Source of the DNA: Escherichia phage vB_EcoM_IME537
Direction: 5' to 3' (one strand)
DNA length: 64,000 nt
Sequence record: NC_054921.1
Shown here: piece by piece, positions 1,167-34,797 of the stretch
How the letters are laid out: each line of letters begins with the position of its first letter
How positions within the stretch are numbered: the first letter of the stretch is position 1
Translations under genes and position numbers: made by a program
The notes under the pieces: generated by a model
Told to the model about the DNA's origin: nothing
What the model saw: only the letters and a program-made list of their open reading frames with translations
Databases searched by the model: none

Positions 1167-1308
1167 TGAAAGCTTTAACTAAAGCTTTATTAACTTCAGC
1201 ATATTGAGTAGTAGCCCATTGAACGTCATCTTTCATCATTGTAATTTCTTTAGTAAACATGCTTTCATTCTTAAACCACCCCATAAAAACTACCTTTACC
1301 AATTCCAT
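1126..1308 (-). CDS. dmd: Dmd-like antitoxin (inhibitor of host RnlA/LsoA RNases)
   Basis: 60 aa ORF MELVKVVFMGWFKNESMF... immediately downstream of gene 41; matches length and position of T4 61.5/dmd from memory. Confidence 0.5.
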   Translation of the reverse strand: MELVKVVFMGWFKNESMFTKEITMMKDDVQWATTQYAEVNKALVKAFIDDKKVCEVDCRG

Positions 1309-1335
1309 AACAATCTCCTCATTTAACCAACAAGA

Positions 1336-1368
1336 CTACTATACCATAGTCTTGTCAGCTTGTAAACT
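1336..1368 (-). promoter_or_regulatory. T4-type early promoter
   Basis: Minus strand GTTTACaagctgacaagactatggTATAGT upstream of the dmd ORF. Confidence 0.5.
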
Positions 1369-2794
1369 AAAATTTTAATTCATTTGCCAAAGCATCTAAC
1401 TGGGCTCGAGTAGATTCATTTCTTTGATAGCGATTCTGCTCAGCTTGTATCTGTTGTGAACCTGCTACTTCGTTCACTTCGGTTGGAGTAGAATCTTGCT
1501 CAATTTCTACCCATTTTTGATTTCCTTTTTGAACACCCATCAAAAACTTATTCCATTTATTCTTATCACCATATCGTGATTTGATTTGCTTAATGAGTTG
1601 CTGTTCAGCCGCTGCTAACTCCTCGGTTTCAATGACCGCAAGCATAAAATCGGCTGTTGCTGGAAGACCGGCAGATTCTGCAATATCGCTCATGTTAACA
1701 TCAGAAGAATCCCAAGCTTGCTTACCAACCTGTGCTGCAGTCCAAAGAACAGTTTCGGTTTCAACAGCTAGAGCACGCAATTCCTCTGCGATAGCTTTAA
1801 CAGTTGTGTAACTATTTTCTGAGTAAACTCTGATGCGACAAGATTTACAAATACCTAGATAGTCGACAATAATGATTGTTGGAACAAAATTCTTCTTGAG
1901 CTTTAATTCGTTTAAAAGCGATCGAAATGTATTAGCGTCTGCTCCACCAGTAGGATACTGTTTAACGATTAAACGTCCAAGAGTAGATTTCTCACGCCAT
2001 TTTTCCATTTTTCCTTTATATTCAGCGTAAGAAATATGCCCATCATCAATGTCATCAAGAGAAACGTCAAGCATATTAGCATCAATACGTTTAGCACAGA
2101 CTTCTTCTGCCATTTCCATGGAAATGTAAAGAACATTATGACCGAGCTGTAAATAATCTGCTGCCAATGAACACAGACCTAATGACTTACCAACGTTAAC
2201 ACCAGCCATTAAAACGTTCAGTGTTCCAGTTTCAGCTCCGCCTTTAGTAATTTTATTTAGAATTTTGAGTTTAAATGGAACCTTACGAGCTTTATTCATA
2301 TAAGATAGCCAACGTGCTTCATAGTCATCCATCCAATCATGACCAACGTAACTATCAAATGAAATTGATAATGCTTGGCGCATGATGTCAGGAATAGCAC
2401 CAACATCCGGCATTTTCTTATTTCGTTTTTCCGGAGGAAGCTCAGCATTGGTTTGAATTTCAATTATTTTAGACGTAGCATTAAACATCGCCCTTTGCTG
2501 AACATATTTTTCTGTTTCTTTTACTAACCAGCTGTGGTCTTCCGGAGAATCGGTTAGTTTTGAAATAAGTGTTTTTACACCAGAATATTCTGTTTCAGTA
2601 AATGAACTATTTTCTAATGCAACATTTAACGCATTAATAGATGGAACGCTATGATACTCATTAACATGTGATTTAATTAATTTGAATGTATTTTTAGCTG
2701 GACCACTTTCAAAATATTCTGAATCCATATATGGCCAAACTTTTGAAAAATAAGCTTGATCAAATATGAGATGAGAAAGAATAATTTCTACCAC
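1367..2794 (-). CDS. 41: replicative DNA helicase gp41
   Basis: 475 aa, DnaB-family P-loop (GVNVGKSLGLCSLAADY); same length as T4 gp41; followed by uvsX and 43 in T4 order. Confidence 0.9.
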   Translation of the reverse strand: MVEIILSHLIFDQAYFSKVWPYMDSEYFESGPAKNTFKLIKSHVNEYHSVPSINALNVALENSSFTETEYSGVKTLISKLTDSPEDHSWLVKETEKYVQQRAMFNATSKIIEIQTNAELPPEKRNKKMPDVGAIPDIMRQALSISFDSYVGHDWMDDYEARWLSYMNKARKVPFKLKILNKITKGGAETGTLNVLMAGVNVGKSLGLCSLAADYLQLGHNVLYISMEMAEEVCAKRIDANMLDVSLDDIDDGHISYAEYKGKMEKWREKSTLGRLIVKQYPTGGADANTFRSLLNELKLKKNFVPTIIIVDYLGICKSCRIRVYSENSYTTVKAIAEELRALAVETETVLWTAAQVGKQAWDSSDVNMSDIAESAGLPATADFMLAVIETEELAAAEQQLIKQIKSRYGDKNKWNKFLMGVQKGNQKWVEIEQDSTPTEVNEVAGSQQIQAEQNRYQRNESTRAQLDALANELKF

Positions 2795-2803
2795 ACTTAC
2801 TCC

Positions 2804-3160
2804 TTAAAGAAATTTAAATTTTTTCTTTGACCTTTTATTAAATGCATCTTGTAGTTGCATTGTAATACATTTTTCTACATGAGGAGCTAACTCAGCTTTT
2901 CTTTCTTGGTCAAGAACAGCAAAGTCCATTACGACTTTTCCATCAACCCAATCTAATTTTGTCACATACACAATGTGTGTAGAACCATCTTCTAGTTTAA
3001 TGACAATCTCCTGGATAACATTTTCCATGGCAGATTTAATTATCTTAAGGGATTCATTAAAAAGACGTTCTTTTCTTTCTTCTTCCCCCTCCGAAGAGGG
3101 GGATTCGTCGATAATTTCTAAATCTAAATCATCTTTATTCATTAAATTCTTCCATATCAC
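2804..3160 (-). CDS. 40: gp40-position protein (head assembly accessory)
   Basis: 118 aa acidic ORF between 41 and uvsX, as in T4. Confidence 0.45.
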   Translation of the reverse strand: MIWKNLMNKDDLDLEIIDESPSSEGEEERKERLFNESLKIIKSAMENVIQEIVIKLEDGSTHIVYVTKLDWVDGKVVMDFAVLDQERKAELAPHVEKCITMQLQDAFNKRSKKKFKFL

Positions 3161-4316
3161 TTAACTGATCTAGGTCAGTTTCTAAATCAGCTGCTGATTT
3201 ACTTTTACTTTCTGGAGATTTAAATTTTTCAACCTTTGAGTTAATTAATTCATCAACTTCAGCTTCAACAATTTCATTGCTATCAATAGCACCTAACTGA
3301 TAAGCACGTTTAATAGCATCTCGGAATGGCTGATGTTTAAATAAAGGACCCCAGAATGTAGTGCAATTGGTATCTTTTGCACGCCAAGATTTTTCTTCGC
3401 GAATCATCTCGCCGGTTTCTTCGTCAAGAAATTCACGAGCATACCAGCCATTTTTAGGTTTTACTACAAATCCTAATTCAAGAGCCATATCTAACAATCC
3501 AGAATAAGGATCGATACCACCGTCAAATTTAACATCAATAAAGAATTTACTTTTTTCTTTAACGGTACGAGATTTTTCTACATTTAGAACAAATTGATAC
3601 CCCTGAAGATCAGAACCATCTTTAATCTGGCGCTTACCGATAATGAATACAGTATCAGCCGAATACATTACGCCTGTACCACCTGTCATCACGGTTTTAC
3701 TAAACATTTCAATTGTTTCAATTGTATGGTTAACCGCAACACATGGAATGTTTTTAATACTAAAATAAGGAGTAACGATACGGAATAATGACTTCAGTGA
3801 TTTAGCACGAGTCATATCTGCCACAGATTTTTCATTCAAGGCATCTTCCGTTTCTTTCTTAGAAGCCATATTACCGATTGAGTCGATGAATACAATAACT
3901 TTTTCACCACGCTCGATAGCTTCAAGCTGATTCACCATATCAATTTTCAGCTGTTCAACTGACTGGATTGGTGTATGAATTACTCGTTCCGGGTCAACTC
4001 CCATGGATCGCAAATAAGCTGGAGTAATACCAAATTCGCTATCATAGAATAAACAAACCGCATCAGGATATTTGTTCAAATACGCCGCAACCATAGTCAA
4101 AGACATATTTGATTTAAAGTGTTTAGAAGGACCTGCAAAAATAGTTAAACCAGACTGCATACCGCCATCAATCGCACCGGAAATAGCAATATTAAGCATT
4201 GGGATTTTTGTACGGATTACATCCTTTTCATTAAAGAATTTAGATGTAGTCAGTTCAGCAGTCATTTTAGAAGTGGAAGCTTTAATCAAACGGGATTTTA
4301 AATCTGCAATAGACAT
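3135..4316 (-). CDS. uvsX: UvsX recombinase (RecA/Rad51 family)
   Basis: 393 aa; Walker A GPSKHFKSN, near-identical to T4 UvsX over most of its length from memory. Confidence 0.92.
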   Translation of the reverse strand: MSIADLKSRLIKASTSKMTAELTTSKFFNEKDVIRTKIPMLNIAISGAIDGGMQSGLTIFAGPSKHFKSNMSLTMVAAYLNKYPDAVCLFYDSEFGITPAYLRSMGVDPERVIHTPIQSVEQLKIDMVNQLEAIERGEKVIVFIDSIGNMASKKETEDALNEKSVADMTRAKSLKSLFRIVTPYFSIKNIPCVAVNHTIETIEMFSKTVMTGGTGVMYSADTVFIIGKRQIKDGSDLQGYQFVLNVEKSRTVKEKSKFFIDVKFDGGIDPYSGLLDMALELGFVVKPKNGWYAREFLDEETGEMIREEKSWRAKDTNCTTFWGPLFKHQPFRDAIKRAYQLGAIDSNEIVEAEVDELINSKVEKFKSPESKSKSAADLETDLDQLSDMEEFNE

Positions 4317-5242: not shown

Positions 5243-5973
5243 TCACCGTTATAATCTTTTTTCGCAATATGAGTTTCGCCAGTTTTCCACCAATGGTCAA
5301 CCAAATAAAAATGACGAGAATACACATGAAGGCTTCCAACATTCCATATAATGGAACCTGCTTTATACTGACGAGTTGAATCACCTGCATTCAAATCAGA
5401 TACTAATTTATCTAGTACGTATTTTTGCCATGCATAATCATTACGGAATCCAAAGACCACGTCATTTGAACGCATGCTTACTACTGCATTGACTTTCTTA
5501 TCACGAATCAGGTACTGTACTGTATTCGTACACATGAAATCTGACATACCATCTTTGTTGTAGTCAAACTGCATGGATGGACGAGTATAAATCATGATAC
5601 CGCGGCGAGAATCAGGATTTTGACCAAGTTCAGCTAAACACATATCATACTGGGCATAGTTATCTTCTGACCAGATAGCCCAACCATAATTCGAGTTAAT
5701 TTCACCTTTAGAAGATGCTACCTGTTGCCAAATCTTTGGCGTTTCGCCTGGAATATCTTTAACAAACAGACTTTGAGACTTATACCATTCAAGTTCACGT
5801 TGAATGTATTCATCATTAAGAGCACCAAAAATAAAAGGTTCATCTGCTACAAATGATGCGCCAATAATTTCAATAGTTTTAACACCAGTTTTATCAACTA
5901 CGAAATCTTTTTCCTTTAATGCAATTCCCAAATGAAGACGGGTTTCTTCAACTGTCATAGAGTCATTAATCAT
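5233..5973 (-). CDS. 42: dCMP hydroxymethylase gp42
   Basis: 246 aa, thymidylate-synthase-like; near-identical to T4 gp42 from memory. Confidence 0.9.
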   Translation of the reverse strand: MINDSMTVEETRLHLGIALKEKDFVVDKTGVKTIEIIGASFVADEPFIFGALNDEYIQRELEWYKSQSLFVKDIPGETPKIWQQVASSKGEINSNYGWAIWSEDNYAQYDMCLAELGQNPDSRRGIMIYTRPSMQFDYNKDGMSDFMCTNTVQYLIRDKKVNAVVSMRSNDVVFGFRNDYAWQKYVLDKLVSDLNAGDSTRQYKAGSIIWNVGSLHVYSRHFYLVDHWWKTGETHIAKKDYNGEWK

Positions 5974-6126
5974 TTAAACCTCAATTGATACATTCATATT
6001 TAACTTGTAACAGTAATAAGCTCCAGCCTAAAATAATAGTTGGAATCATACAAGGAACTGCTACGCTATAGTATATACTTATTATAATCATCAAGATTAA
6101 AAGCAATACTGCTAAAATTTTGCTTT

Positions 6127-6948: not shown

Positions 6949-9645
6949 TCAGCCAAACAGGAAGTCTAACGAAGCTTTTTCCTCATAGTCCATACCTGCC
7001 GATTCACACATACCCGCAAGCGGTTTAACAAACGATTTTTGGAACAAAGTTGAGTAGTCAATCCAAGACAGTACATCAGAACGAATTTCTTTTGGAAGTT
7101 CCGTACCCGACGGCCAAGCAATGCATTTATCGCCAAATGGATTTCCCTCACGTAATGGAAGAACCATTACCTTATTTCCATCCAAAATTGGAGCTACACC
7201 TAAACCATTAACAGCTCGACGATAAGTTAGCACCCCACGAATATGGAACGGGCATTTAAACCCTGGCCAACCTTTATCATCATATTTCGCTATATCATTC
7301 GCGGTTTTTACTTCAGCAATAACTTTATAATCAAGTTGACGATATTCTTTCTCAAAGTTCTTATAGTATTCTTGGACAGACTCTTCGCCTTCCTGAAGAA
7401 TACGACGAATACTTTCTTCAAGAGCTTCTTGCACTGCTTTTGGTGTTGAACTCTGTTGAGTTTCCATACCCATGATTTTTAGATGCGGTTCAGCAAATCG
7501 CTTATCTTCCATATCATAAACGTTCAGAGCATAACGTTTTTTCGCTTTCCAAAATCCACCAACACCCTTTGAACCAAGCGGAGGACAAGAAATAGCTTCA
7601 CGGTCCATATGCATCAGATGCTCGCGGTTATTCATATAATCACATAACTCACGATATGCAACATCAATCATAGGTTCCATCTTTTTCTTACCGAACTGAT
7701 TCATGAATTCAACTAAATCATTTTGTTCTTTAAAGCGATCAAGACCTACTTTTTCAATTACTTTATCTACACAAACATATACCGAATCAGTATCACCTGC
7801 TGCGATGAAATCTTCACCATCAGTTCCACATACTTTATTCAGATATTCATTAATTTTACGAGCAATCCACTGAATACCAACTTGACCGAAAATTGTGATA
7901 GCAGTAGCATTTCGCAAATCATAGTAACGGAAATGAATATTACCAAGAGCACCATAAAGACTGTTAATAAGAATTTTACGGTTCAGCTGATTTGTGTTAG
8001 CAAGTGTAGCTGCTTTTTCACATTCTTCGATCAGACTATTAAGAACAGATTCAGTGTAATTCGATAATTCGTTTAAGAAATCATCATTGAACTTAACATA
8101 TCGTTCAACTTCTGGTTTAGTTGAACAAGACCCTGCACCTTTCATAATAATCTTTTTAATAGCTTCGGCATTCATTTCTTCAGCGAACATTTTCTTTTTC
8201 CAATCTTTACGTTGGAAAAATACTTTAGCGATTTCCTTTGGAATGATACCTTCTTGATGCTTATCATACATCCATCCATTCGGAGAACAAGAATATTCAT
8301 CACTTGGCTTAGGAGCTGTTCCTGCGATATATTCATGAATTGGATGAACTTTAAACTGTCCACGAATAGTCTCAGGACTAATGTTAACCTGACGAATAAT
8401 GCTAGGATACAGAGACGTCAAGTCAAAACTCATAATGTATCGACGAGCAATCGGTTTAGGTTCAAACACAAATGCACCTGGAAAACTCTGTTTAACGTGC
8501 GAACCTTGTTGAGGAATAACCTTATGTTCACCTTTCAGTGAGTTAAAAATAATAGCATCCCAAGTTTTAATAGGACTCATTACACCAGAAAAAGGCATTT
8601 TAGCGTAATAAGACATACTTAAAACTAGATCGATAAACCCACGAATTTTATCAATTGCTTGAACTGATTCTACGTCAATGATGTTATAACTAATGTATCG
8701 TTGATGATTAGTCTCACGAAGTTTATTAATAGGACCATCGTACGGCAATTTACCTTTTTTGGTTTCGTGCTGAGCAACTGATTCCAAAGAGAACGATGGC
8801 AAATTAGTAAATGCGAACTTCTTGTACAAATCTAAATAATCAAGAATAGATACGCCATCAATAGAATAAATTTCTTTGCTACCGTACATATTTTGAATTA
8901 GTTTAGATTTTACTCGACCGATTGGAGAGAAACGTTTCATACTGCGTTCACCGAGAACCATTTTAACACGATTCATGATATACGGAACGTCAAATCCCTC
9001 AATATTCCAACCAGTAAAAATAGCAGGTCGTTTCTGTTCCCAGAGATTAATATATTCCATGAGCATATCACGCTCATTATCAAATGGCATATAAATTACT
9101 CGGTCAAGAATTTCTTGAGGAACTTCATCACCACCTTCACAGTCAAGCTTAGCAGCTAACTTTGCATCCCATTTTGATACTGAGCCGTACATTGAATTCA
9201 ACAAATCAAAGACGTAAAAACGGTCGTCAATTGAATCATAATGAGTGATAGCATCAATTTCATATTCTGCTTTCATTGGGTCAGGAAATTTATCGCCAGT
9301 AACCTCAATGTCACAGTTAGCTACACGAACAAATTTTCGGTCATAAACAATTTCTGAACCATATGTATCACTGATATAAGCGAGTTTAAAATCGTTCATA
9401 CCGAGAGCTTCGAGACCGATGTCTTCCATTCGTTTCATCCAATCTCGTGCATCTTTCATTGATGGAAATTTTTGAGGAGCACAGTTTTTACCGTAAATGT
9501 CTTTGTATTTTGATTCTTCCTTACAGTGTCTAAACATAGTCGGAAGATATTCTACTTCACGAGTACGTTCCTTTCCGTTTTCATCAATATAACGTTCAAT
9601 AATGTTATTTCCGACTGTTTCAATAGAGATATAAAATTCTTTCAT
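6949..9645 (-). CDS. 43: DNA polymerase gp43 (family B, with 3'-5' exonuclease)
   Basis: 898 aa, same length as T4 gp43; conserved motifs incl. YGDTDS-like (AAGDTDS) and SLYPS. Confidence 0.95.
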   Translation of the reverse strand: MKEFYISIETVGNNIIERYIDENGKERTREVEYLPTMFRHCKEESKYKDIYGKNCAPQKFPSMKDARDWMKRMEDIGLEALGMNDFKLAYISDTYGSEIVYDRKFVRVANCDIEVTGDKFPDPMKAEYEIDAITHYDSIDDRFYVFDLLNSMYGSVSKWDAKLAAKLDCEGGDEVPQEILDRVIYMPFDNERDMLMEYINLWEQKRPAIFTGWNIEGFDVPYIMNRVKMVLGERSMKRFSPIGRVKSKLIQNMYGSKEIYSIDGVSILDYLDLYKKFAFTNLPSFSLESVAQHETKKGKLPYDGPINKLRETNHQRYISYNIIDVESVQAIDKIRGFIDLVLSMSYYAKMPFSGVMSPIKTWDAIIFNSLKGEHKVIPQQGSHVKQSFPGAFVFEPKPIARRYIMSFDLTSLYPSIIRQVNISPETIRGQFKVHPIHEYIAGTAPKPSDEYSCSPNGWMYDKHQEGIIPKEIAKVFFQRKDWKKKMFAEEMNAEAIKKIIMKGAGSCSTKPEVERYVKFNDDFLNELSNYTESVLNSLIEECEKAATLANTNQLNRKILINSLYGALGNIHFRYYDLRNATAITIFGQVGIQWIARKINEYLNKVCGTDGEDFIAAGDTDSVYVCVDKVIEKVGLDRFKEQNDLVEFMNQFGKKKMEPMIDVAYRELCDYMNNREHLMHMDREAISCPPLGSKGVGGFWKAKKRYALNVYDMEDKRFAEPHLKIMGMETQQSSTPKAVQEALEESIRRILQEGEESVQEYYKNFEKEYRQLDYKVIAEVKTANDIAKYDDKGWPGFKCPFHIRGVLTYRRAVNGLGVAPILDGNKVMVLPLREGNPFGDKCIAWPSGTELPKEIRSDVLSWIDYSTLFQKSFVKPLAGMCESAGMDYEEKASLDFLFG

Positions 9646-9703
9646 AGATATTCCTTAGTTTATAGCCCGAGTTATTAGGCTCTTGATATATTATACTCCA
9701 AAT

Positions 9704-9720
9704 AAGGGCCGAAGCCCCTT
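9704..9720 (-). other. UUCG-tetraloop RNA hairpin (GGGC-UUCG-GCCC) in 43 leader
   Basis: Plus strand gggccgaagcccc; this tetraloop hairpin class is well known in T4 intercistronic regions. Confidence 0.45.
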
Positions 9721-9722
9721 GC

Positions 9723-10091
9723 TTAATTACCAATCGTATATTTGGGAACGAGTTTCCATTCATGTTTTTGCTTAAAAGAAATAACTCGGAAGTTATTAGT
9801 TAAATCTTTCATAAAAGTTCTTTGACCTGGAGCGATTTCAATCAGTCCCCAATCTTCTAACAGCCATGCAATCGAATCACGACGAACTTCATCTTCTTCT
9901 GTCATTTCAACCTGGCGACCATCCATACGAAGCATTTCTTTAAAATGAACGATATAGTATAGTCCTTTTTTCTGGAGAATATGACAGGATTGATACAGAA
10001 CTTTATCTTTATTATTAGCAATTCCCATACGAGTCAAAGTTTCTTTAACTTTCAGAAAATCTTCAGGTTTTTTAAGAGTAATTTCAATCAT
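9723..10091 (-). CDS. regA: RegA translational repressor
   Basis: 122 aa, essentially identical to T4 RegA from memory. Confidence 0.9.
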   Translation of the reverse strand: MIEITLKKPEDFLKVKETLTRMGIANNKDKVLYQSCHILQKKGLYYIVHFKEMLRMDGRQVEMTEEDEVRRDSIAWLLEDWGLIEIAPGQRTFMKDLTNNFRVISFKQKHEWKLVPKYTIGN

Positions 10092-10092
10092 T

Positions 10093-10656
10093 TTACCATT
10101 CCAATGCTAGTTTTTTGAGTTGTTTCTGTTCTTTTACATTCTTAGTCACTTCTTTCAAAAAATCATCCGTGACTAAACCTTTTAGTTCTTTTAATACTAA
10201 AGAAAGTTTTCCATTTTTAGTAAGAATTGATTTATAGTTAATTGCATCATTTGTATTAACTTGATACCGCTTAGCAAGTAACTTAATAATCAATACTTCG
10301 GTAGAATCTTCAACCAGTTTTGCCCATTTACCATATCTTTTACCACGAGGAACAGCAGCCATTAGATAATTAAAATGGGCTTCATCGCTTAAACCTGATC
10401 CAATTAAATTCATAGCATATACAGCTGGCATGCACTCAGGAAATTGTGATAATGCATTCTCAACCATGTATTTTGAATAATCTTTTTGAGCAATAGAGCA
10501 TTTAGTTTTATTATTAATAGCTCCAATTATTTCAAAAAACTCATTTTCAGCTTTTTCCTTAAAAGAATCAGCAGCAGATTGGACAGCTGTCCAATCTTTT
10601 GAATACCAAGCAACTTGATGCTCGTTTAATTGAATATCATCTTCAAATAAGCTCAT
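10093..10656 (-). CDS. 62: clamp loader small subunit gp62
   Basis: 187 aa, position between regA and 44. Confidence 0.85.
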
Positions 10657-10657
10657 A

Positions 10658-11632
10658 TCACTTCCACTGCATTTCGCATGCCAATTGAATGAAAAGATAT
10701 GCTAAATGTAATTCCGTATTAGCCGCAATTCCATGATACTGGTTATTTTCACCAACAATTTCATACATACGAATAATACTTTGCGGAGTTACGCGTGTAT
10801 AAATTTCTTCGGCAAGTTTACCTACGAACCACGAATAATCAGCTGCATATTTTGGTGCTAAAGCTCTGAGCTGTTTAACATCTTTATTTTTGAGAGATTC
10901 AAGAACATCATCAATAGCACCACGATCGTTAGTAACCAGTGATAAAATACCAGCATCCAAAACACCTTTAGATGAATAACTATCGAGCTCGCCAATAGTT
11001 TTACGAAAATCAGGAAAATTCTTTTTAACCAAAGCTGCTACAACTTTCATATCAGCTATAGCAATTCCTTCACGCTTACAGATTTCAGTCAATCGCCGAA
11101 TCATCTGCTTCATCATTTCAATTTTATCTTCATCGGTCGGTTGACCGAACGTAATAACTCGACAGCGTGACTGAAGTGGTTTAATAATACCATCAATATT
11201 GTTAGCAGTAATAATAATACTACAGTTTGAACTATAAGCTTCCATAAAGGAACGAAGATGTCGCTGAGACTCTGCTAATCCTGAACGGTCAAATTCATCA
11301 ATGACGATTACTTTTTGACGGCCATCAAATGAAGCTGCACTAGCAAAATTGGTCAAAGGACCGCGAACGAAATCAATTTTACAATCTGACCCATTCACAA
11401 ACATCATATCAGCATTTACGTCATGACACAATGCTTTTGCTACGGTTGTTTTACCTGTTCCTGGAGAAGGAGAATGAAGAATAATATGTGGAATCTTACC
11501 TTTACTTGTAATAGATTTAAAGGTTTCTTTATCAAAGGCGGGAAGAATACATTCATCGATAGTAGATGGACGATATTTCTGTTCAAGAATGTGTTCTTTT
11601 TCATTTACAGTAATCATAATTTCCTCATTCAA
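10658..11632 (-). CDS. 44: clamp loader ATPase gp44 (AAA+)
   Basis: 324 aa; Walker [11 protein letters not shown], Walker B VIVIDEFD. Confidence 0.92.
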
Positions 11633-25756: not shown

Positions 25757-25936
25757 TATTTTCAAGTATTGTAAAACATTCGATGCAATCGCTTATATTG
25801 TCGAATCATCTTTTTAGTAGGACGAGAATAAGTTCCTACACAAGTGGTCATATTAGGGTCAGTAGGACTTCCTTTAATAAAAAGTTTCCAGACTTTACCA
25901 CCATTTAGCTTTTCAGTATAAATCAATTCAGTTTTC
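25757..25936 (-). CDS. hypothetical small protein (below ORF-track threshold)
   Basis: Hand-translated about 59 aa ORF (MKTELIYTEKLNGGKVWKLF...). Confidence 0.25.
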
Positions 25937-25937
25937 A

Positions 25938-26402
25938 TTAGAATGGCCTATCAGAAAAAGAAATTTGAGTTTCAAGCCATTCAATATATTCTGCCGCAGC
26001 TTGCATCAAATTTCCTTCATAACCATCGTTGTTTTCTTGCGCAGCTAATTTAGCTAATGCATATGAAATGCGTTCACCCTGAAAAGCGGCTTTAGGTTTA
26101 TGAATAGCTTGATCAACTCGTTCTACAACTTCTTCAATTTCGCCATTTTCTACTGATTCAGTATTCCACAAGCACCAATACGTAATTGGCTTATCATAGA
26201 TGTTAATAACCTTTCCGTCAGAAAGTTCAATTTCAATAATTCCAGTATCAGGTTCTATGTCATCTTCACATTCTTTTACAAGTTCACGAACTTTAAAGAC
26301 AGTACCTGCACTAAGTTCCGGCCAGTAATTACACAGCCCCTTATCAGCACGATTAATTCTAAACCACTTATCTACTGTAATCATGTCCCATCTCCATATC
26401 AA
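25938..26402 (-). CDS. hypothetical acidic protein at the pin position (possible Lon-inhibitor PinA homolog)
   Basis: 154 aa ORF between 49 and nrdC; track start is TTG; assignment by position only. Confidence 0.3.
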   Translation of the reverse strand: MIWRWDMITVDKWFRINRADKGLCNYWPELSAGTVFKVRELVKECEDDIEPDTGIIEIELSDGKVINIYDKPITYWCLWNTESVENGEIEEVVERVDQAIHKPKAAFQGERISYALAKLAAQENNDGYEGNLMQAAAEYIEWLETQISFSDRPF

Positions 26403-26506: not shown

Positions 26507-26716
26507 TTAACCCCGAAGCTTATTAAGTTCTTCATAATCAATCCAGGATTCTAGTCCTGATGGCAAATCATATTCAATTTCCCAAAGAAGTTCTTCAATT
26601 TTCTGAAGACGATCTAATTCTTCAGCTGGAATAGTAACCATTGACGGAGTTCTTGATACATTAATATCGTAAATCATATTTACCCCAGTTTGACCATACA
26701 ATCGCCGTATTTCCAT
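26507..26716 (-). CDS. hypothetical small protein
   Basis: 69 aa ORF. Confidence 0.35.
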   Translation of the reverse strand: MEIRRLYGQTGVNMIYDINVSRTPSMVTIPAEELDRLQKIEELLWEIEYDLPSGLESWIDYEELNKLRG

Positions 26717-26895
26717 TTAGAAATAGACTTTTCACCGTTAGAATAATAAACTTCGAGTTTAGCACGGTTATTTTTAATTTGAATAATCTTTGCTGTCATC
26801 AAAGTTCCATATCCATAATAAACTGCAACTTCATCACCTACATATACCGCGCTTCCGCGGTAGTCATGGATATAATCAGTTCCTTCGAGCATCAT
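26680..26895 (-). CDS. hypothetical small protein
   Basis: 71 aa ORF. Confidence 0.35.
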   Translation of the reverse strand: MMLEGTDYIHDYRGSAVYVGDEVAVYYGYGTLMTAKIIQIKNNRAKLEVYYSNGEKSISKWKYGDCMVKLG

Positions 26896-27155
26896 TTGAA
26901 GTATTCCCGCAATTGGTCAAATCCACCAATATGACTTCCATCAGGAGCAAATACCTGAGGCATCGTCAATCCGATTTGAGTATCACGACCTAGTTTAGTC
27001 AGAAGCTCAGCAATTTTCTCATCATCAAAAACACCTTTTTCCGGCATAATGTTGATAAATTCAAACGGCTGTTTCTTCACGGTCAAAAGACGTTTTGCAT
27101 TATCACAATACACGCATTTATGAATGTTGCTATCATAACCATATACTTTAAACAT
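26892..27155 (-). CDS. nrdC: phage thioredoxin/glutaredoxin NrdC
   Basis: 87 aa, CVYC active site; near-identical to T4 NrdC from memory. Confidence 0.9.
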   Translation of the reverse strand: MFKVYGYDSNIHKCVYCDNAKRLLTVKKQPFEFINIMPEKGVFDDEKIAELLTKLGRDTQIGLTMPQVFAPDGSHIGGFDQLREYFK

Positions 27156-27223
27156 ATTATTCCTTAATTCCTAATACTTGTTTAAAAGTCTCGTCGTAAT
27201 CAAGACTTTGGCCCGTTTGTTCT

Positions 27224-27445
27224 TTATGTTTGTATAATATCACTTACTTCTGATAGCATATTTTTATATGAACGAGTTAAAGCTGATTTAAGCACGCTGT
27301 ATCTATCAGGAAATTTACCATGTTCATTATAATAAGCTATTGCTAATTCACGGACTGCCTTTTCAGCAGTCTCCATATATTCTTTACGCTTTGTCATTTT
27401 CTTCTCGGTCAAATCGATGTTTACAATGACGACATTTATATTCAA
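27224..27445 (-). CDS. hypothetical protein
   Basis: 73 aa ORF. Confidence 0.35.
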
Positions 27446-27701
27446 GCTCTGGTTTACGCCAGTTAATCAATTGGACCTGTTCAGTACCACATTTTGGGCA
27501 GTTCGGAACATTCTTAGAAGCCCTTTCGCGGCGTTCAACCATAACCATAATGGCATCCCAAGCAGGAGGTTTAAAGTCTAGATCGTCACAGCCATGAATC
27601 TTTCCACGCATTTCTAAATCGTCTTCTTCACCAGCCATAATAATTTTAATTAGACTGGAATTACTTGAAGCTGCAATATCTTCTAATAAGCGCTTTTTCA
27701 T
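27384..27701 (-). CDS. hypothetical protein with C-terminal zinc-ribbon (CPKC...CRHC)
   Basis: 105 aa; four-cysteine motif. Confidence 0.4.
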
Positions 27702-28627
27702 TTCAATACCTCAATAGCATTACGTAAACCATTTGCTTTGGCAGTTAAAGCCTTAAGAACTTTAGTATGCTCTTCAATCTGTTTTTCAACTTCAATTAAG
27801 CGTGTATTAAGATATTCGCGTTCTTCACTCAGGTTATCAATCTTTTCTACTTTAGGTTCTTTTACAACTGGCTTATATGTATTAGGGTTCTTCAGTTTAA
27901 TTAGAATGCGTGAACTGTATAACATTGAACCATTATCTTCGGTTTCGTCATACATTTCCACTACGTCCATCATCTCCACCATCGTGCAGAGTTTATAAGA
28001 CAACGAACGAATAGTTTTGTTATGCTTATTAATTTCTCTAGCTGTCATGGTGCCGAGATTACGTGAGTAATAATAAGGAACCTGGATATTAATTAATACT
28101 GATGAACCACCTGGCTTGTGTGTTACTTCATCAGCAATAACCCAGTCCTTAACATGAACTGTATTTGTACGGTCATCGCCCGCGGTAAATAGTTTACGAG
28201 CATGCTTAAAAAGCATATTCACTTGGTCATTGAATTGACAAGCGAATTTATCAGCAAATTTAGTTTCAGGAATGGTAGATAACCAATCAGCCAAATGGGT
28301 CTTTTTAACATCGTTAACAATAGTAAATTCAACCAAATCGGTTATAGATGTCGCAGATTTAATGAAGCTCGGCTTCATAAAGTTTTTAATGTTATCACTA
28401 GCTACAGTAGAAGATAACAGACGAGAACGTTTAAACCATTGAAGCAAATTGCCTAACGAATGAGAATAAGCGTTTTGAGTATCTTTACAGATATGATTTT
28501 CCTGGCCAACATATTGAAAGAAATCACGAAGAATATTATTGATTACTGCTCTGTGCCCAATCTGATAATTACGGTGTTTAGTAATAAGACTATCAAAATA
28601 ATCAATATAATGTTTACGAGTTTTCAT
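27698..28627 (-). CDS. hypothetical protein, member 1 of a four-gene tandem paralog family with C-terminal coiled-coil
   Basis: 309 aa; MKTR... start; C-terminal heptad-like segment ([29 protein letters not shown]). Confidence 0.5.
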   Translation of the reverse strand: MKTRKHYIDYFDSLITKHRNYQIGHRAVINNILRDFFQYVGQENHICKDTQNAYSHSLGNLLQWFKRSRLLSSTVASDNIKNFMKPSFIKSATSITDLVEFTIVNDVKKTHLADWLSTIPETKFADKFACQFNDQVNMLFKHARKLFTAGDDRTNTVHVKDWVIADEVTHKPGGSSVLINIQVPYYYSRNLGTMTAREINKHNKTIRSLSYKLCTMVEMMDVVEMYDETEDNGSMLYSSRILIKLKNPNTYKPVVKEPKVEKIDNLSEEREYLNTRLIEVEKQIEEHTKVLKALTAKANGLRNAIEVLK

Positions 28628-28679
28628 GTTCTTCTCACTTGGTTAATGATTTATACTCCGAGCCATCCTTGGCTTTAAA

Positions 28680-29711
28680 TTACTTAATTAACTGTAAAGC
28701 TTGTTCAAGACGATCCAGGCGATTAACAGATTCTTCCCAAATCCTTTTAGCCTGCTCATATTCTTTCTGTGCTTTATTAGAAATTTCTAGAACTTCTTTA
28801 TAAGCTTTTTCTAGTGCAATAACTTCTGGACGAATTTCTACCGGTTCAAGTGAATCATCAAGACATTCCATTAGTTCCTCAAGGGTAGTTTCTTCTTTAG
28901 GAGTATTCACAATTTCATCACATTTTTGTTGGTAAATTTCTTTATCAGTCGGTGAGTACGCGCACTTTACTTCACGGAGACTAACTACAATTTTATATCC
29001 TTCCCAACCGCACATATTCTTAAAAGGATAAGTATGAATATTTTCTACCGTTTCCATACAAAATAATGCAGTCTCTAATTGACGAGTTATATCACTAGCA
29101 ATTGAGAAAAATTTATTAATGTTCTTTTGATTAGCTTCTGGTGTAAAAAATCCATAATTCACAAAAATAGCTGCTTTATTTTTATCAAGTTCATATTCTT
29201 TTATGATAATCATGTCAGAAGCCCAAGGATGAATTTGACGATAATCACCATAGCATAATTTAGAAGCTGATTTTAGAATTTGCTTTTTGAAAAGTCTGAA
29301 ATTACTAATCCAACGACGAGTAAAAATATTCTCAGGGTCTTCTTTATTATTAAGATGATAAGAATTAACATCACCGAACCAATTATATCCTACTACATCT
29401 TTGGTTCGTTTAATTTCTTTCCCAAAATTACCAAGAATATCCTGATTAACTAAATATGAAAGAAGACGAGAACCTTTAAAGGTTTCCTTAATATCACCTT
29501 TATCTTCGCGACTAGAAATTTTATGAACTTCATGAATAAATTTGCTGGAAGAAACAATGCTTACATCAATATTATTGAGCCATTGATTGATAATGGAAAT
29601 AACGTTATTCTGACTAGACATAGGTTTAACTTTATCATCAATAACGCTATTAAATGATTTGATATATTCGTTACGAGTCATATTAATCTCCTCAGTAGAA
29701 AGTAAGAACAT
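28680..29711 (-). CDS. hypothetical protein, tandem paralog family member 2
   Basis: About 333-343 aa (start probably MTRNEYIKSF); C-terminal coiled-coil. Confidence 0.5.
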   Translation of the reverse strand: MFLLSTEEINMTRNEYIKSFNSVIDDKVKPMSSQNNVISIINQWLNNIDVSIVSSSKFIHEVHKISSREDKGDIKETFKGSRLLSYLVNQDILGNFGKEIKRTKDVVGYNWFGDVNSYHLNNKEDPENIFTRRWISNFRLFKKQILKSASKLCYGDYRQIHPWASDMIIIKEYELDKNKAAIFVNYGFFTPEANQKNINKFFSIASDITRQLETALFCMETVENIHTYPFKNMCGWEGYKIVVSLREVKCAYSPTDKEIYQQKCDEIVNTPKEETTLEELMECLDDSLEPVEIRPEVIALEKAYKEVLEISNKAQKEYEQAKRIWEESVNRLDRLEQALQLIK

Positions 29712-29738
29712 TATACCACATCCTTGTGGTAAAGTAAA

Positions 29739-30761
29739 CTAGTTCAGTGCATTTAGTGCATTGTTCAGTTTAGAACGTTGCTTCGTGAGATTTTTGACTT
29801 TTTCTTGAGCTTTTTCTAGCATCTTTTCAGCTTCTAGCACTTCATTAGTTGCTTTAACGAGTTCATCATCTACTGCCTTGATAGACTTCTCAATCGCATC
29901 TGCATGCCATTTTTCAACAGGTTTAAGACTCGGATTTTCAATAGGAAGAAAATTCACTTTATTGAATTTCCATGCATCTTTATTACCTGAACTATACATC
30001 CAAAATTTAGGATCGTTTGATGAGTAATTGGATAAATTTAAGTTATCTTGCACTTCCTGCTTTTTCTCTTGTGTGACTTCGTCCTTTCTCAAAAAATCGT
30101 ATTTAAATGAAACGATCATATCAAGTTCATATGTTGTTGTATGTTCCCAATTTCGCTCAAAATGAGGTAAAATCTTAGACTGAACAGCGGCAACAACATC
30201 CATATACTTAAATGCTTCTGTTAACTGCGATTTAAGGCATTCACAAATTGAAAGAGAATTTTTTGTATTAGGTTTAAAGCTAATTCGTGCAGTTCTATTA
30301 TTTTCTTTTAATGGTCTTACTTCCATCTGAAGAGTATAACCATCAAATTTCAGATTCTTTAAGTTAATATCAGAACCTTTTAATCGACTCGCAGTTGATA
30401 AAATTTGTTTTAATTGTTTACGGAATAGAGCAATAAATCTCCATTCAATACGATAATGATTTGGATTGAAAAATCCAGATGATAAATCGACCTTACTTTG
30501 ACCGACGCCTTGAACAAATAGAGGATTTTTATAATCAATAGTTTTACAGAAATCGGTGAGCTGCTCACGAGCCGTCATTTGCGTAATATACCCTGCTTCG
30601 CTAAAATTACGCACCCATTCACCGCTATTCGTATACTTAAAGTGATGAATAACACGATTAACTTTATCAGGGTCTAAATTATTTTCACACAAAAATGTCA
30701 TAACATCACGGGTATAGCTGGCATTACGAACCATATCTTCAATTTGAGAACGAGTTTTCAT
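29739..30761 (-). CDS. hypothetical protein, tandem paralog family member 3
   Basis: 340 aa; MKTRSQIEDM start; C-terminal coiled-coil (EAEKMLEKAQEKVKNLTKQRSKLNNALNALN). Confidence 0.5.
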   Translation of the reverse strand: MKTRSQIEDMVRNASYTRDVMTFLCENNLDPDKVNRVIHHFKYTNSGEWVRNFSEAGYITQMTAREQLTDFCKTIDYKNPLFVQGVGQSKVDLSSGFFNPNHYRIEWRFIALFRKQLKQILSTASRLKGSDINLKNLKFDGYTLQMEVRPLKENNRTARISFKPNTKNSLSICECLKSQLTEAFKYMDVVAAVQSKILPHFERNWEHTTTYELDMIVSFKYDFLRKDEVTQEKKQEVQDNLNLSNYSSNDPKFWMYSSGNKDAWKFNKVNFLPIENPSLKPVEKWHADAIEKSIKAVDDELVKATNEVLEAEKMLEKAQEKVKNLTKQRSKLNNALNALN

Positions 30762-30769
30762 GGTGTTCC

Positions 30770-31693
30770 TTAAGATTTAAGTAAATCAACAATTTTAATT
30801 AACTTTTCACGCTCAGATTTAGCTTTACTACTCAATCCAGATAGTCTGAAAATTTCATCATCATATTGCTGAATAGAAATATTTAGCTCTTCAATTTGCT
30901 TATTAAAATAATCAATTTGTTCAGAATGTTTTTCGTTACTACGAACTGGTACAGGTTTTGTAGGCAATTTAGTTGAACTGGATTCATCCGGGCGATAAAT
31001 TAAAATACAACTTGAACCAATCGGACATTTAGCACCAGACACATATTCTAATGTTCCGGCTTCTTTTAAAACTTCAAAAGCTAAACAGAGATGATGACCC
31101 ATATTGGCATAATCTGTAGAGTGAGCTCTGATGTAATAATCATCTCCACGAGTACTAAATTTAAAGCATTTAAGGTCTTCTGTATTATTGGTCTTAAAAA
31201 TCATTTGTTTATCTAGACCTTTAGCTAATCGAGCGCCTAATGCTAATAATCGTCGTTGATTTTTCCACAAATCCGCAATCATTTGATCGAATGATAATTT
31301 TGGCATTAGTCGACCATAAAGGTCATATCCTTTATTATAATTACGAAGGATTTCACTCGCATTAATGCGAGACAACGCTCCAATTTTATTAAGGGCTTTC
31401 ATAATGCGTTTAGATAAAAGCATTCCAGACCCGTTTGGTCGCTGTAAATGTTTTTCTAATCCAAATCCAATATCAACTTTAAACTTATCTAAAATTTCGG
31501 CATGAACATCTTTATCAATAACATTCAAATCCAAAGTTGGGTTAAATCTATGAAAAAATTTATCTGGCTCTCCACGACGAAGTACAGTCCATTCATTTGA
31601 TTTTTTATTAACTAAAGATTTAATTACTGCATTGACATTATTAATTGCTACTGACATATTTTCCTCACTCAATTTCAATTTTACTAAATACAC
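30770..31693 (-). CDS. hypothetical protein, tandem paralog family member 4
   Basis: About 295-307 aa; C-terminal coiled-coil (QIEELNISIQQYDDEIFRL...). Confidence 0.5.
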   Translation of the reverse strand: MYLVKLKLSEENMSVAINNVNAVIKSLVNKKSNEWTVLRRGEPDKFFHRFNPTLDLNVIDKDVHAEILDKFKVDIGFGLEKHLQRPNGSGMLLSKRIMKALNKIGALSRINASEILRNYNKGYDLYGRLMPKLSFDQMIADLWKNQRRLLALGARLAKGLDKQMIFKTNNTEDLKCFKFSTRGDDYYIRAHSTDYANMGHHLCLAFEVLKEAGTLEYVSGAKCPIGSSCILIYRPDESSSTKLPTKPVPVRSNEKHSEQIDYFNKQIEELNISIQQYDDEIFRLSGLSSKAKSEREKLIKIVDLLKS

Positions 31694-32127: not shown

Positions 32128-32655
32128 TTATGCGAGTACCGTCTTTAACCGTTCTTCAAACTTCCGAAGAGTATTTTGGCGTTCAGCTCTTTGCTTTTTG
32201 TAAGTTTCAATACGCTCTGAAATGAGAGTGTATCGTTCATTTACTGATTCTTTCATAAAATCAGGAATTTCACGAGAAGCTTTAATCTCGTCAAATTTAT
32301 CAATAACAGCTTGCTCTTCAGCAATTAAGTTATCATACATTAAAATATCTTTCTTGATGAACTCAATATCTTCTTGAGTTACACGAGATAATTTAGATGC
32401 TTTATCCTTTTTGTACTGTTCGTTAGTATCACGAGACCAGTGTAATGTACGATTTTTATTCGTATTTTTGTAAATTTCTACAATACCGATCTCATCAATA
32501 ATAACGATCCAATTCCAACGGGATTTGTAAATTTGTCCTCCATCAACAATGATTTCACCTCCGATTGAGATGTCGTTAAAGAACTTGCTTTGTGCTTCAG
32601 ATTTAAATTTACCATCGTTGTAATTTACCAGGTTGAAAATATCTTTAGCGTTCAT
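32128..32655 (-). CDS. hypothetical protein
   Basis: 175 aa ORF directly downstream of an early promoter cassette. Confidence 0.45.
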   Translation of the reverse strand: MNAKDIFNLVNYNDGKFKSEAQSKFFNDISIGGEIIVDGGQIYKSRWNWIVIIDEIGIVEIYKNTNKNRTLHWSRDTNEQYKKDKASKLSRVTQEDIEFIKKDILMYDNLIAEEQAVIDKFDEIKASREIPDFMKESVNERYTLISERIETYKKQRAERQNTLRKFEERLKTVLA

Positions 32656-32715: not shown

Positions 32716-33030
32716 CTAAAAGAAACTTCTTTCACAATTTTTTCCACTGAACCATGCGCTCACTGCTTTCTTAGTCTCAGGAGCAGTGTTATCCATAAAC
32801 CATTCAAAGGCAGCCTTTTTATGATTCTGGAGGGCTTCTCGGGCTTTAATCTGCTCACGGTCTATTAACACTAACATATGAGCCTTTCTTGTCACCATGG
32901 GCTTCTTATGATTTTTTGAATACTCCCAGTCATTTGTCCATCGCATTGTCGTTGCGAACTGAAATACTGCTTCTTTAATTTTAGTTTCGTAAATTTCACG
33001 AGCCTTTGAGTATAACATCACTACCTCCAT
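32716..33030 (-). CDS. hypothetical protein
   Basis: 104 aa ORF. Confidence 0.4.
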   Translation of the reverse strand: MEVVMLYSKAREIYETKIKEAVFQFATTMRWTNDWEYSKNHKKPMVTRKAHMLVLIDREQIKAREALQNHKKAAFEWFMDNTAPETKKAVSAWFSGKNCERSFF

Positions 33031-33100: not shown

Positions 33101-33820
33101 TTAGGATTCTTCTAAATGTCTTTTCTGAAAAGTTGATACCATACTACGATACGGTTCATTTGGATATCCGTGTTTTATAGCTTCCTTTGTAAATTTTCTC
33201 CATCCATATTTAGTTTCTTTCCAAAGCTCGAATAATTCATCTTCATACTGCCATATAGTTAAATGAGAACGCTTTGCAGCTTTAATTCCATTAATATGCT
33301 TTTCTTTTACTGCAGGATTGCTTAGTTTCTTTTTAATAATATTACTAACTTTTCTAACAAAAACTGGGTCCTTATATCGTTGCGAAGTTTTTATTGAAGT
33401 GTTTAATTTAGCTTCCGGCGTGGATGTAACCTCTTTCATCTTTTTCTTCATATGCTGTATATGATTAGGATTTTTCCATAAATTTATAGAATGCTTTTTG
33501 CATTTTATCCTAGTTTCATCTGCAACCTTTCCTCCTTCACCCCCGTATGACAGGTTAACACAGTTTTTTCCATATTTCAATTTACCTGCCATGATATATA
33601 ATATTTCAGCTTGTACCATTTTATCATAATTATCAAAAACTTCTAAAACCGTTTTTGATAATATGTGGTCATTTGACACTTTTACACGTTCTATATAATT
33701 TCCACTACCAACATACGAATCATTGATGTTATTAGTTATATGTCGACCATAATAGTATTTCTTAATACCTGTCTTTAAATTTAATATTTCAGTTTTATAG
33801 ATAGTAAAATATTTTTTCAT
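33101..33820 (-). CDS. free-standing Seg-like GIY-YIG homing endonuclease
   Basis: 239 aa; N-terminal GIY-YIG-like module (YFTIYKTEI...KKYYYGRH...YVGSG) resembling segB in this window; basic C-terminal DNA-binding region. Confidence 0.6.
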   Translation of the reverse strand: MKKYFTIYKTEILNLKTGIKKYYYGRHITNNINDSYVGSGNYIERVKVSNDHILSKTVLEVFDNYDKMVQAEILYIMAGKLKYGKNCVNLSYGGEGGKVADETRIKCKKHSINLWKNPNHIQHMKKKMKEVTSTPEAKLNTSIKTSQRYKDPVFVRKVSNIIKKKLSNPAVKEKHINGIKAAKRSHLTIWQYEDELFELWKETKYGWRKFTKEAIKHGYPNEPYRSMVSTFQKRHLEES

Positions 33821-34797
33821 TTTAATAATACCGTTTCAGCAATTTCTTCCCAACCGTTTTTATCGGTCATAATAAAGTCAGCAAGATAAAGAGCAGTACG
33901 CAGTGAAACATTGCGTAAACGATTAACATTGACTTTCATCCATGATAATGCTTTATAAGTTTCTTCATCAGAAAGACCGCGCTTTTGCATCATGTCGGTT
34001 GAAAGAATAACATCTTCAACCCTGACCATAATTTCTTCATTAGTGTGAACACCCAAATCCAAATAAACTGAGCGGGATACTAATGCTTGTAAATGTGGAG
34101 CAAGTTTAGTACCACGGTCTAATTCGCGGTCAATGTCAACGTTTGTGATAAAAACAATCGTTCCTTTAAATTCAAACTCACGCTCAATGCCTTTTTCTTC
34201 TAAGTAAGAAGATGCAGTGCTCCAGCAGACTTTACGGGTCTCTCCAGTGTCCAGAGCGGCTTTTAGAAGATTAAGAATGTCCATATCAGAGAAAACATCC
34301 ACATCATCAATCAAAAGGACAGAATTCTCTTCACGATTATTCCAAAGTTGTTCATAAAGACCGATACCGGAGATTTTACCGTTAATGCTTTTATATTCAA
34401 TGTATCCATTATCATTTGCTTTATTCAAAGCTTTATCTAAAGAATACGTTTTACCAATACCTGCTGCACCAGAGATAATTAATGAACGAATGTTTCCGTT
34501 AATAATACCATTCGTCATCATTCCCATAACATTAAATCTTTTATTAATGCGGGTTTTCATATCTTCATATGATTCTTTAACTTCTTCAACTTTTACACCA
34601 TCATATGAAATGTCTGATTTGTAAACCCAAACACCGCGACGTTTACCGTCAATTTCAACAAAAACTTTACCATCTCCTTGTGCATCTACCGGAGCATTAT
34701 CTGGGAACCATTCACCTAAGAGCTCAAAAGTTCCAGAGATTTCTTTACCGAAGTAGATACCCTTATTGATAGTTACAGTTTTCATTTTATTCTCCAA
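33817..34797 (-). CDS. P-loop ATPase (AAA+-like)
   Basis: 326 aa; Walker A GAAGIGKT, Walker B VLLIDDVDVF. Confidence 0.55.
   Translation of the reverse strand: MENKMKTVTINKGIYFGKEISGTFELLGEWFPDNAPVDAQGDGKVFVEIDGKRRGVWVYKSDISYDGVKVEEVKESYEDMKTRINKRFNVMGMMTNGIINGNIRSLIISGAAGIGKTYSLDKALNKANDNGYIEYKSINGKISGIGLYEQLWNNREENSVLLIDDVDVFSDMDILNLLKAALDTGETRKVCWSTASSYLEEKGIEREFEFKGTIVFITNVDIDRELDRGTKLAPHLQALVSRSVYLDLGVHTNEEIMVRVEDVILSTDMMQKRGLSDEETYKALSWMKVNVNRLRNVSLRTALYLADFIMTDKNGWEEIAETVLLK

Follow-up and report, generated by a model that had tools for sequence, protein, structure and literature searches.

Four tandem genes of a T4-like phage, orthologues of T4 nrdC.3 to nrdC.6, as a putative paralog family of coiled-coil-tailed candidate inhibitors of host immunity

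In the 64,000-nucleotide (nt) stretch of DNA analysed here (the window; Escherichia phage vB_EcoM_IME537, sequence record NC_054921.1), four consecutive minus-strand open reading frames (ORFs) are the orthologues of phage T4 nrdC.3, nrdC.4, nrdC.5 and nrdC.6, as established from the ORF map and by placing the T4 proteins with tblastn. We accept the four genes as one old, rapidly diverging family of paralogs in which nrdC.6 is linked to the others through predicted structure. On balance, we favour the reading that their products are made early, are dispensable and act as oligomers that inhibit host immune proteins, using a common scaffold against different targets; anti-defence activity has been demonstrated for nrdC.5 only and is proposed here for the other three. 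A sequence-only reading of the same DNA had described four tandem paralogs with coiled-coil ends, possibly corresponding to T4 nrdC.x ORFs, and had suggested inhibitors or adaptors diversified toward different partners. The correspondence to T4 is borne out and can be given precisely, as nrdC.3 to nrdC.6.

The window phage belongs to the genus Tequatrovirus, and the 4.2-kilobase stretch holding the four genes was matched in 658 phage records (best match 97.7%). Comparison of the T4 annotation with the window ORF map showed that order and strand are as in T4, with nrdC.3 to nrdC.6 lying between nrdC.2 and nrdC.7, downstream of nrdC; the glutaredoxin-like nrdC gene is at 26892-27155 of the window. 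The nrdC.3 orthologue (27698..28627, -; 309 amino acids, aa) is a mosaic allele with 62% identity to T4 NrdC.3 and matches PHROG 1435 at E 1.6e-115. The nrdC.4 orthologue (28680..29681, -; 333 aa) is 91% identical to its T4 counterpart and matches the same PHROG at E 2.8e-166, and the nrdC.5 orthologue (29739..30761, -; 340 aa) is 94% identical to T4 NrdC.5 over its full length and carries the Pfam domain DUF7235. The nrdC.6 orthologue (30770..31657, -; 295 aa) is the full-length form, with 95% identity over T4 residues 1-259 and a match to PHROG 2257 at E 6.7e-150. The nrdC.6 coding sequence of the reference T4 record (NC_000866, 12067-12894; 275 aa) carries a frameshift close to the 3' end that costs it most of the coiled-coil tail; the full-length gene is found in the window, in nearly all homologues (295-296 aa), in T4 record KJ477684 and in the HIDEN-SEQ annotation of T4 (891 nt).

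A Shine-Dalgarno sequence lies upstream of ATG 28627 (nrdC.3), ATG 29681 (nrdC.4, GAGGAG), ATG 30761 (nrdC.5) and ATG 31657 (nrdC.6, GAGG). None precedes the upstream ATG 29711 or GTG 31693, both of which are unsupported ORF extensions. Since nrdC.6 has its Shine-Dalgarno sequence at 31657 and none at 31693, the right-hand coordinate of the sequence-only reading, 31693, was 36 nt too far; its left-hand coordinate, 27698, stands, as does its description of four consecutive ORFs at this place, and its size range of 300-340 aa becomes 295-340 aa. At the family level, Pfam and PHROGs split the four genes into three separate families, with NrdC.5 in PHROG 2351. In a Pfam scan, NrdC.5 matched DUF7235 (PF23882) over the whole model with 435.8 bits against a cut-off of 30, and NrdC.3, NrdC.4 and NrdC.6 gave no match to this domain. 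Precomputed annotation places PF26897 on all NrdC.4 homologues and on a NrdC.5-NrdC.3 fusion protein (P0056), and PF26899 on all NrdC.6 homologues; in a local Pfam scan, however, neither NrdC.3 nor NrdC.4 of the window matched PF26897.

Beneath this family-level division, sequence comparison related three of the four genes. nrdC.3 and nrdC.4 are clearly homologues by sequence: they are 24% identical over 270 aa (BLASTP, E 2e-7), align with an hhalign probability of 98% and share PHROG 1435. Theirs was the sole pair found when all pairs of the four proteins were compared by BLASTP, and a NrdC.4 family profile run against 1.84 billion representative proteins matched seven clusters, one of which is NrdC.3 (E 7e-7). 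nrdC.4 and nrdC.5 are probably homologues as well, judging from hhalign (probability 81-93%, E 4e-7 to 1.3e-5, 183-297 collinear columns) and from weak matches of both proteins to PHROG 26858. Sequence support for homology thus covers the pairs nrdC.3-nrdC.4 and nrdC.4-nrdC.5, and nrdC.6 is reached only through Foldseek comparison of models, motifs and heptad register. The related N-termini that the sequence-only reading had reported hold for the same three genes (MKTRKHYIDYF, MTRNEYIKSF, MKTRSQIEDM) and not for nrdC.6, which begins MSVAINNVNAV. DNA repeats between the genes are limited to in-register remnants of 14-23 nt, so the duplications must be old. Recent gene conversion among the paralogs was also considered and is ruled out by the shortness of these remnants.

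All four proteins end in a long helix with a heptad hydrophobic repeat, as the sequence-only reading had claimed. A first, ad-hoc heptad score barely exceeded shuffled sequences, and we instead used Fourier analysis of family-averaged hydrophobicity over the last 48-58 residues, with permutations. The hydrophobicity peak was sharp at a period of 3.5 residues, clearly above the signal at 3.6, with P <= 0.0005 for NrdC.3, NrdC.4 and NrdC.5 and 0.007 for NrdC.6. When tails were ranked by this periodicity among the 64 window ORFs of at least 120 aa, the four came 1st, 2nd, 4th and 5th; by a combinatorial count, the chance that four specified ORFs all fall in the top five of 64 is about 8e-6. 

The helix of NrdC.4 (aa 285-333, 28683..28829, -; rank 1/64) ends LEQALQLIK and was modelled by AlphaFold2 (AF2) as a single helix spanning residues 285-332, and that of NrdC.5 (aa 283-340, 29742..29915, -; rank 2/64) ends LNNALNALN; for both, 0 of 2000 permutations reached the observed periodicity. 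The helix of NrdC.3 (aa 262-309, 27701..27844, -; rank 4/64) ends LRNAIEVLK (permutation P = 0.0005). The helical tail of NrdC.6 (aa 245-295, 30773..30925, -; rank 5/64) ends LIKIVDLLKS and consists in the AF2 model of two helices, 245-271 and 277-294, split by SGLSS, with a predicted local distance difference test score (pLDDT) of about 90. Counted from the C-terminus, the best register is "...abcde" in NrdC.3, NrdC.4 and NrdC.5, and in NrdC.6, longer by one residue, it is "...abcdef"; all four tails end L-x-x-A/V-[ILV]-x-x-L-[KN], and a [KE]-P-V motif stands just ahead of the helix. The sole PDB sequence matches of the NrdC.5 tail were weak and included the coiled-coil-type chains keratin 5 and haemoglobin linker L1. 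In the deposited RB69 genome (AY303349, about 5700-5990), the nrdC.5 coding sequence has a non-helical tail, and the expected coil ...QLQYSKLFNAMNALKS (...LFNAMNALKS) lies in another frame; the coil is missing there only because of a frameshift.

Functional evidence comes from nrdC.5. Srikant, Guegler and Laub (eLife 2022) reported that a T4 deletion mutant fails to plate on E. coli carrying the ECOR17 sirtuin defence Dsr1, and that a plasmid supplying T4 nrdC.5 alone is enough for the mutant to plate on Dsr1 cells again (PMC9391042). The window orthologue (29739-30761) lies at the same genomic position; about 19 residues of its allele differ from T4, grouped around residues 181-225 and within the tail. 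Activity has been demonstrated for the T4 allele against ECOR17 Dsr1 only, and the window allele, at 94% identity, would be expected to share it. This published role overtakes the sequence-only reading's remark that function was unknown, and it supports the idea of an inhibitor family as far as nrdC.5 goes. Because nrdC.5 disarms Dsr1 and the four genes appear to be one family, nrdC.3, nrdC.4 and nrdC.6 are good candidate immune inhibitors. nrdC.3 and nrdC.4 are the paralogs of nrdC.5 detectable by sequence, and identity to NrdC.5 within the family is at most about 24%. Searches of Pfam (DUF7235 in NrdC.5 apart), NCBIfam, PADLOC and, with three profiles, the PDB were empty or returned noise and gave no functional clue, and our literature search found nothing on DUF7235 and no further mention of a function for nrdC.3, nrdC.4 or nrdC.6.

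In the mechanism we propose, the four proteins would be made early, would not be needed in laboratory hosts and would inhibit host anti-phage proteins stoichiometrically. Each would combine an N-terminal helical domain that varies, an alpha/beta core whose helix pair is conserved, a flexible [KE]-P-V linker and the C-terminal heptad helix. The conserved tail would provide oligomerisation and avidity, and the variable N-terminal and beta-sheet surfaces would set target specificity; between genera, the N-terminal domain and beta-sheet region are the most variable parts, and the helix pair and tail are conserved. NrdC.5 would bind the SIR2-type NADase Dsr1 directly and prevent its activity, on the model of DSAD1 and DSR2, and NrdC.3, NrdC.4 and NrdC.6 would present different variable surfaces of the same scaffold to other targets. 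DSAD1 of SPbeta-like phages, an inhibitor that published structures place in the DSR2 sensor pocket to which the tail tube protein binds (PMC10973363), offers the best mechanistic analogy, since its target too is a single-gene, defence-associated sirtuin NADase; the nrdC family shows no sequence or fold likeness to it. Dispensability agrees with a T4 transposon study that lists nrdC.3 to nrdC.6 as non-essential, each gene having been hit at 79-97 of its 82-101 sites (supplement of bioRxiv 2025.11.20.689424), in line with the accessory character that the sequence-only reading had assigned to the region. Two neighbours in the same early, non-essential, highly plastic segment of T4 also inhibit defence systems on their own and came to light through gene loss or amplification: NrdC.1 inhibits Septu (bioRxiv 2025.11.20.689424), and gp49.2 inhibits OLD, as reported in a separate published study. 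Both are small, at 80-106 aa, are unrelated to NrdC.3 to NrdC.6 and lack the three-part architecture of that family.

Several results weigh against this account. First, functional data cover one of the four genes, nrdC.5, and its mechanism is unpublished. Second, one HIDEN-SEQ conditional comparison, in the supplementary data of bioRxiv 2025.11.20.689424, gave no significant effect for the four genes (q = 1.0). Third, oligomerisation through the C-terminal helix, though most likely, is read from periodicity only. Fourth, AF2 models cover NrdC.4 and NrdC.6 of the four proteins, and the Foldseek matches that link nrdC.6 have template modelling (TM) scores of just 0.37-0.43 and large root-mean-square deviations. 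Fifth, the nrdC.6 profile aligned with those of the other three without significance (hhalign probability 0.1-4%). Sixth, a conserved polar patch of NrdC.6 could mark an enzymatic or nucleic-acid-binding site and not a variable binding surface. Lastly, gene-wide positive selection is rejected, since pairwise ratios of nonsynonymous to synonymous substitution (dN/dS) against T4 are below 1. At 0.13-0.30 for the four genes, compared with 0.00-0.04 for gene 49 and nrdC, these ratios point to relaxed or partly diversifying selection; the diversification proposed by the sequence-only reading holds for diverged paralogs with dN/dS above that of housekeeping neighbours, and not as positive selection across whole genes.

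The fourth and fifth points would suit a rival in which nrdC.6 is not a paralog at all, its likeness amounting to an unspecific coiled-coil tail and a widespread alpha/beta topology, and the array consisting of three paralogs and an unrelated neighbour; the separate NrdC.6 family in both PHROGs and Pfam fits the same picture. We consider this very unlikely, as the AF2 models of NrdC.6 (pLDDT 78.5) and NrdC.4 (pLDDT 84.9) have an identical order of secondary-structure elements: a helical domain at the N-terminus, two paired helices, a beta hairpin, one long helix, another beta hairpin, a linker of low confidence and, at the end, a long helix. For these two proteins, the shared fold that the sequence-only reading had anticipated is seen in element order, tempered by the low TM-scores. 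The alpha/beta core, comprising the helix pair, hairpin, long helix and hairpin, spans aa 119-235 of NrdC.4 (28977..29327, -) and aa 123-221 of NrdC.6 (30995..31291, -; H123-132, H134-144, E165-170, E173-178, H186-199, E204-209, E217-221). In a Foldseek search of BFVD, the NrdC.4 model matched the NrdC.6 model of phage JS10 (E 1.3e-4, probability 1.00), and about nine further matches (E 1e-7 to 1e-3) were common to the NrdC.4 and NrdC.6 models. These are uncharacterised Straboviridae proteins, one from fHyAci03 and the others, of 300-375 aa, from Acinetobacter phage Acj61 (E5E4A1 and E5E4A2), Enterobacter phage IME523, Pectobacterium phage PM2, Erwinia phage Cronus, Yersinia phage fHe-Yen9-01 and Serratia phages PS2 and CBH8; the latter set matched both models with probabilities of 0.66-1.00, mostly 1.00, at 11-17% sequence identity, and all are unannotated. 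Three motifs are collinear within the non-significant hhalign alignment: LSRxNAxxILxNYNK of nrdC.6 with SRLLSYLVNxDILxxFGK of nrdC.4, GYDLYGR with GYxWFGD, and NQRRLLALGARLAKGxD with xxxxILKSASKLxxGD. NrdC.6 also shares the heptad register and terminal motif with the others, and its gene sits in the same syntenic array across genera.

nrdC.8 was tried as a fifth member and rejected, with an hhalign probability below 1%; what remains is its rank-10 tail and weak Foldseek matches to a 175-aa protein. NrdC.8 itself (175 aa; 32128-32655, -) has a Pro/Gly-free helical tail ...LRKFEERLKTVLA, rank 10/64 for heptad periodicity, and the AF2 models of NrdC.4 and NrdC.6 weakly match a 175-aa protein of Klebsiella phage KPV15.

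The polar patch lies in the NrdC.6 core, within the near-invariant stretch NQRRLLALGARLAKGxDKQMxFKTNN; residues N133 Q134 R135 R136 ... R143 ... D149 K150 Q151 are near-invariant among homologues of 41-96% identity. Such a patch would be at home in enzymes, or in proteins that mask nucleic acids or proteins and so hide a phage trigger or repair damage, the anti-Dsr1 effect then arising from activator masking or from compensation for lost NAD+. That the trigger and mechanism of Dsr1 are still little described (DSR1 "remains poorly characterized", PMC13464706) and that phage NAD+-restoring pathways do counter DSR1 leave room for such indirect action. We nevertheless regard it as unlikely, given that no enzyme family was matched in Pfam, NCBIfam, PADLOC or PDB sequences and that the patch is not common to the NrdC.3 or NrdC.5 sequences.

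Direct inhibition could also take a more specific form, in which the alpha/beta core mimics a tail-tube or tail-terminator fold and the proteins act as early, coiled-coil-oligomerised decoys that pre-occupy the pockets of immune sensors for late virion proteins, each paralog serving a different sensor. An early decoy with a virion-protein fold is attractive because DSR2 senses the tail tube protein and DSAD1 mimics it, and NrdC.5 blocking Dsr1 would then be a first, hypothetical case parallel to DSAD1 on DSR2. The predicted core may bear a weak fold likeness to tail terminator or completion proteins (lambda gpU, SPP1 gp17-like, T5 p142, gene transfer agent, phage 812 and Mu); unrelated small folds score equally, and we hold this form of the mechanism to be improbable.

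The family is confined to T4-like phages, as judged from homologue searches and the seven clusters matched by the NrdC.4 profile, and the array is old. Two of the Foldseek matches, E5E4A1 and E5E4A2, belong to Acj61, a phage of a different subfamily, and correspond to its p120 and p121, paired by length and adjacency. These two genes stand in tandem just downstream of nrdC, and their products carry a heptad-like helix with an LNKAL or LAKAL motif, terminal in one protein and near the C-terminus in the other; hidden Markov models of the three families failed to detect them. Acj61 also has another tandem duplicate pair (9028-11322), p076 and p077, both of 372 aa and annotated "putative copy", and, at 1229-3938, adjacent nicotinamide phosphoribosyltransferase and ribose-phosphate pyrophosphokinase genes that may form an NAD+-restoring pathway.

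Copy number varies between and within genera, from one to four intact genes; the sequence-only reading had proposed looking for such variation across T-even phages. Tequatrovirus typically has four; RB69 has three, without nrdC.4, as do VR26 and C6, without nrdC.3. Within Tequatrovirus, ACG-C40 keeps nrdC.6 alone intact, after a deletion running from inside nrdC.5 to inside nrdC.3, and Pinarejo has three, nrdC.6 being lost. These losses bear on a further rival, that the four proteins assemble into one hetero-oligomeric complex, zipped together by their tails, with a single function of which anti-Dsr1 activity is one read-out. Adjacent, co-oriented and closely spaced genes would suit such a complex, as would a heptad register identical in all four relative to the C-terminus and the conserved L-x-x-A-[ILV]-x-x-L-[KN] ending and [KE]-P-V motif. 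It is weakened because members are lost independently in viable phages, and plasmid-borne nrdC.5 alone complements the anti-Dsr1 defect, in a mutant that may or may not have kept the other paralogs. We judge the single complex distinctly unlikely and retain separate inhibitors with different targets as the favoured reading.

Further rearrangements were found within the array. The metagenomic protein P0056 is a deletion fusion, nrdC.5(146-272)-nrdC.3(129-309), joined at a short FN..VN microhomology, and NrdC.6 of Shigella phage Sf25 (P0120) has an internal duplication of 83 residues. By sequence, the window nrdC.3 is an inter-genus recombinant mosaic: its ends are 77-93% identical to T4 NrdC.3 and its middle 23-57%, and residues 31-150 are 83-97% identical to NrdC.3 of RB69, a phage of another genus. 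Across the records searched with tblastn, nrdC.3 falls into two allele classes.

Hundreds of GenBank and UniProt entries label NrdC.2 to NrdC.6 homologues "thioredoxin". The label, together with the position of the genes next to nrdC, would imply redox or nucleotide-metabolism proteins working with nrdC, nrdD and nrdG, a proposal that we regard as effectively refuted. The label is unfounded because none of the four proteins has a thioredoxin or glutaredoxin match in Pfam or NCBIfam or a CxxC motif, and because the AF2 architecture of NrdC.4 and NrdC.6 is unlike thioredoxin; it appears to have propagated from the "nrdC.x" gene names.

It was already known that these genes are T4 ORFs and that one has an anti-defence role. 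The literature we searched does not describe nrdC.3 to nrdC.6 as a single family united by its fold and by a coiled-coil tail of conserved register, nor does it mention the reach of the family to remote Straboviridae at the same position or the inter-genus mosaicism of nrdC.3. Besides the family-level link, the weak and tentative likeness to tail terminators is put forward here as new. Placing NrdC.5 in a four-member family supplies a structural hypothesis for the Dsr1 inhibitor, with a common scaffold, a predicted conserved oligomerisation tail and variable surfaces, and nominates its other three members as candidate inhibitors of further defence systems, perhaps including unknown ones. Natural variation suits specificity swaps: nrdC.3 has mosaic alleles, copy number runs from one to four among phages, and Acinetobacter phages have remote relatives of the family. 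Correcting the "thioredoxin" label affects hundreds of phage genomes and is relevant to choosing T4-like phages for therapy.

Several further features of the region were recorded. A consensus scan found a promoter-like site in the nrdC.5-nrdC.4 spacer (29710..29738, -; TTTACT, 17 nt, TG-TATAAT, with an extended -10 and 10/12 matches), which is a pattern match only; this one good early-promoter-like site apart, the promoter and terminator scan of the region gave site counts no higher than expected from shuffling. When the T4 proteins were mapped, 49.2 (the OLD inhibitor) and 49.3 had no counterpart in the window. Between 49.1 and nrdC there are instead two minus-strand ORFs, one matching PHROG 3402 "antitoxin from a toxin-antitoxin system" (26507-26716) and one matching PHROG 2112 (26680-26895), and ACG-C40 and Pinarejo have the same two-ORF arrangement in place of 49.2/49.3. 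nrdC.1 (27160-27445, -) is frameshifted relative to T4, with residues 1-55 at 27397-27233 and residues 54-80 in another frame at 27240-27160; the window ORF stops early at 27224, by real truncation or sequence error. The Lon protease inhibitor gene pin (25762-26402, -) is interrupted, T4 residues 1-146 lying at 26384-25947 and residues 144-161 about 130 nt on, at 25818-25765, and a separate 58-aa ORF (25762-25938, PHROG 3272) fills its 3' part. Finally, a homing endonuclease gene (239 aa, 33101-33820, -; PHROG 314, E 1.4e-30) lies between nrdC.9 (32716-33030) and the AAA-type nrdC.10 (33817-34797), at a position where ACG-C40, Pinarejo and RB69 have no gene.

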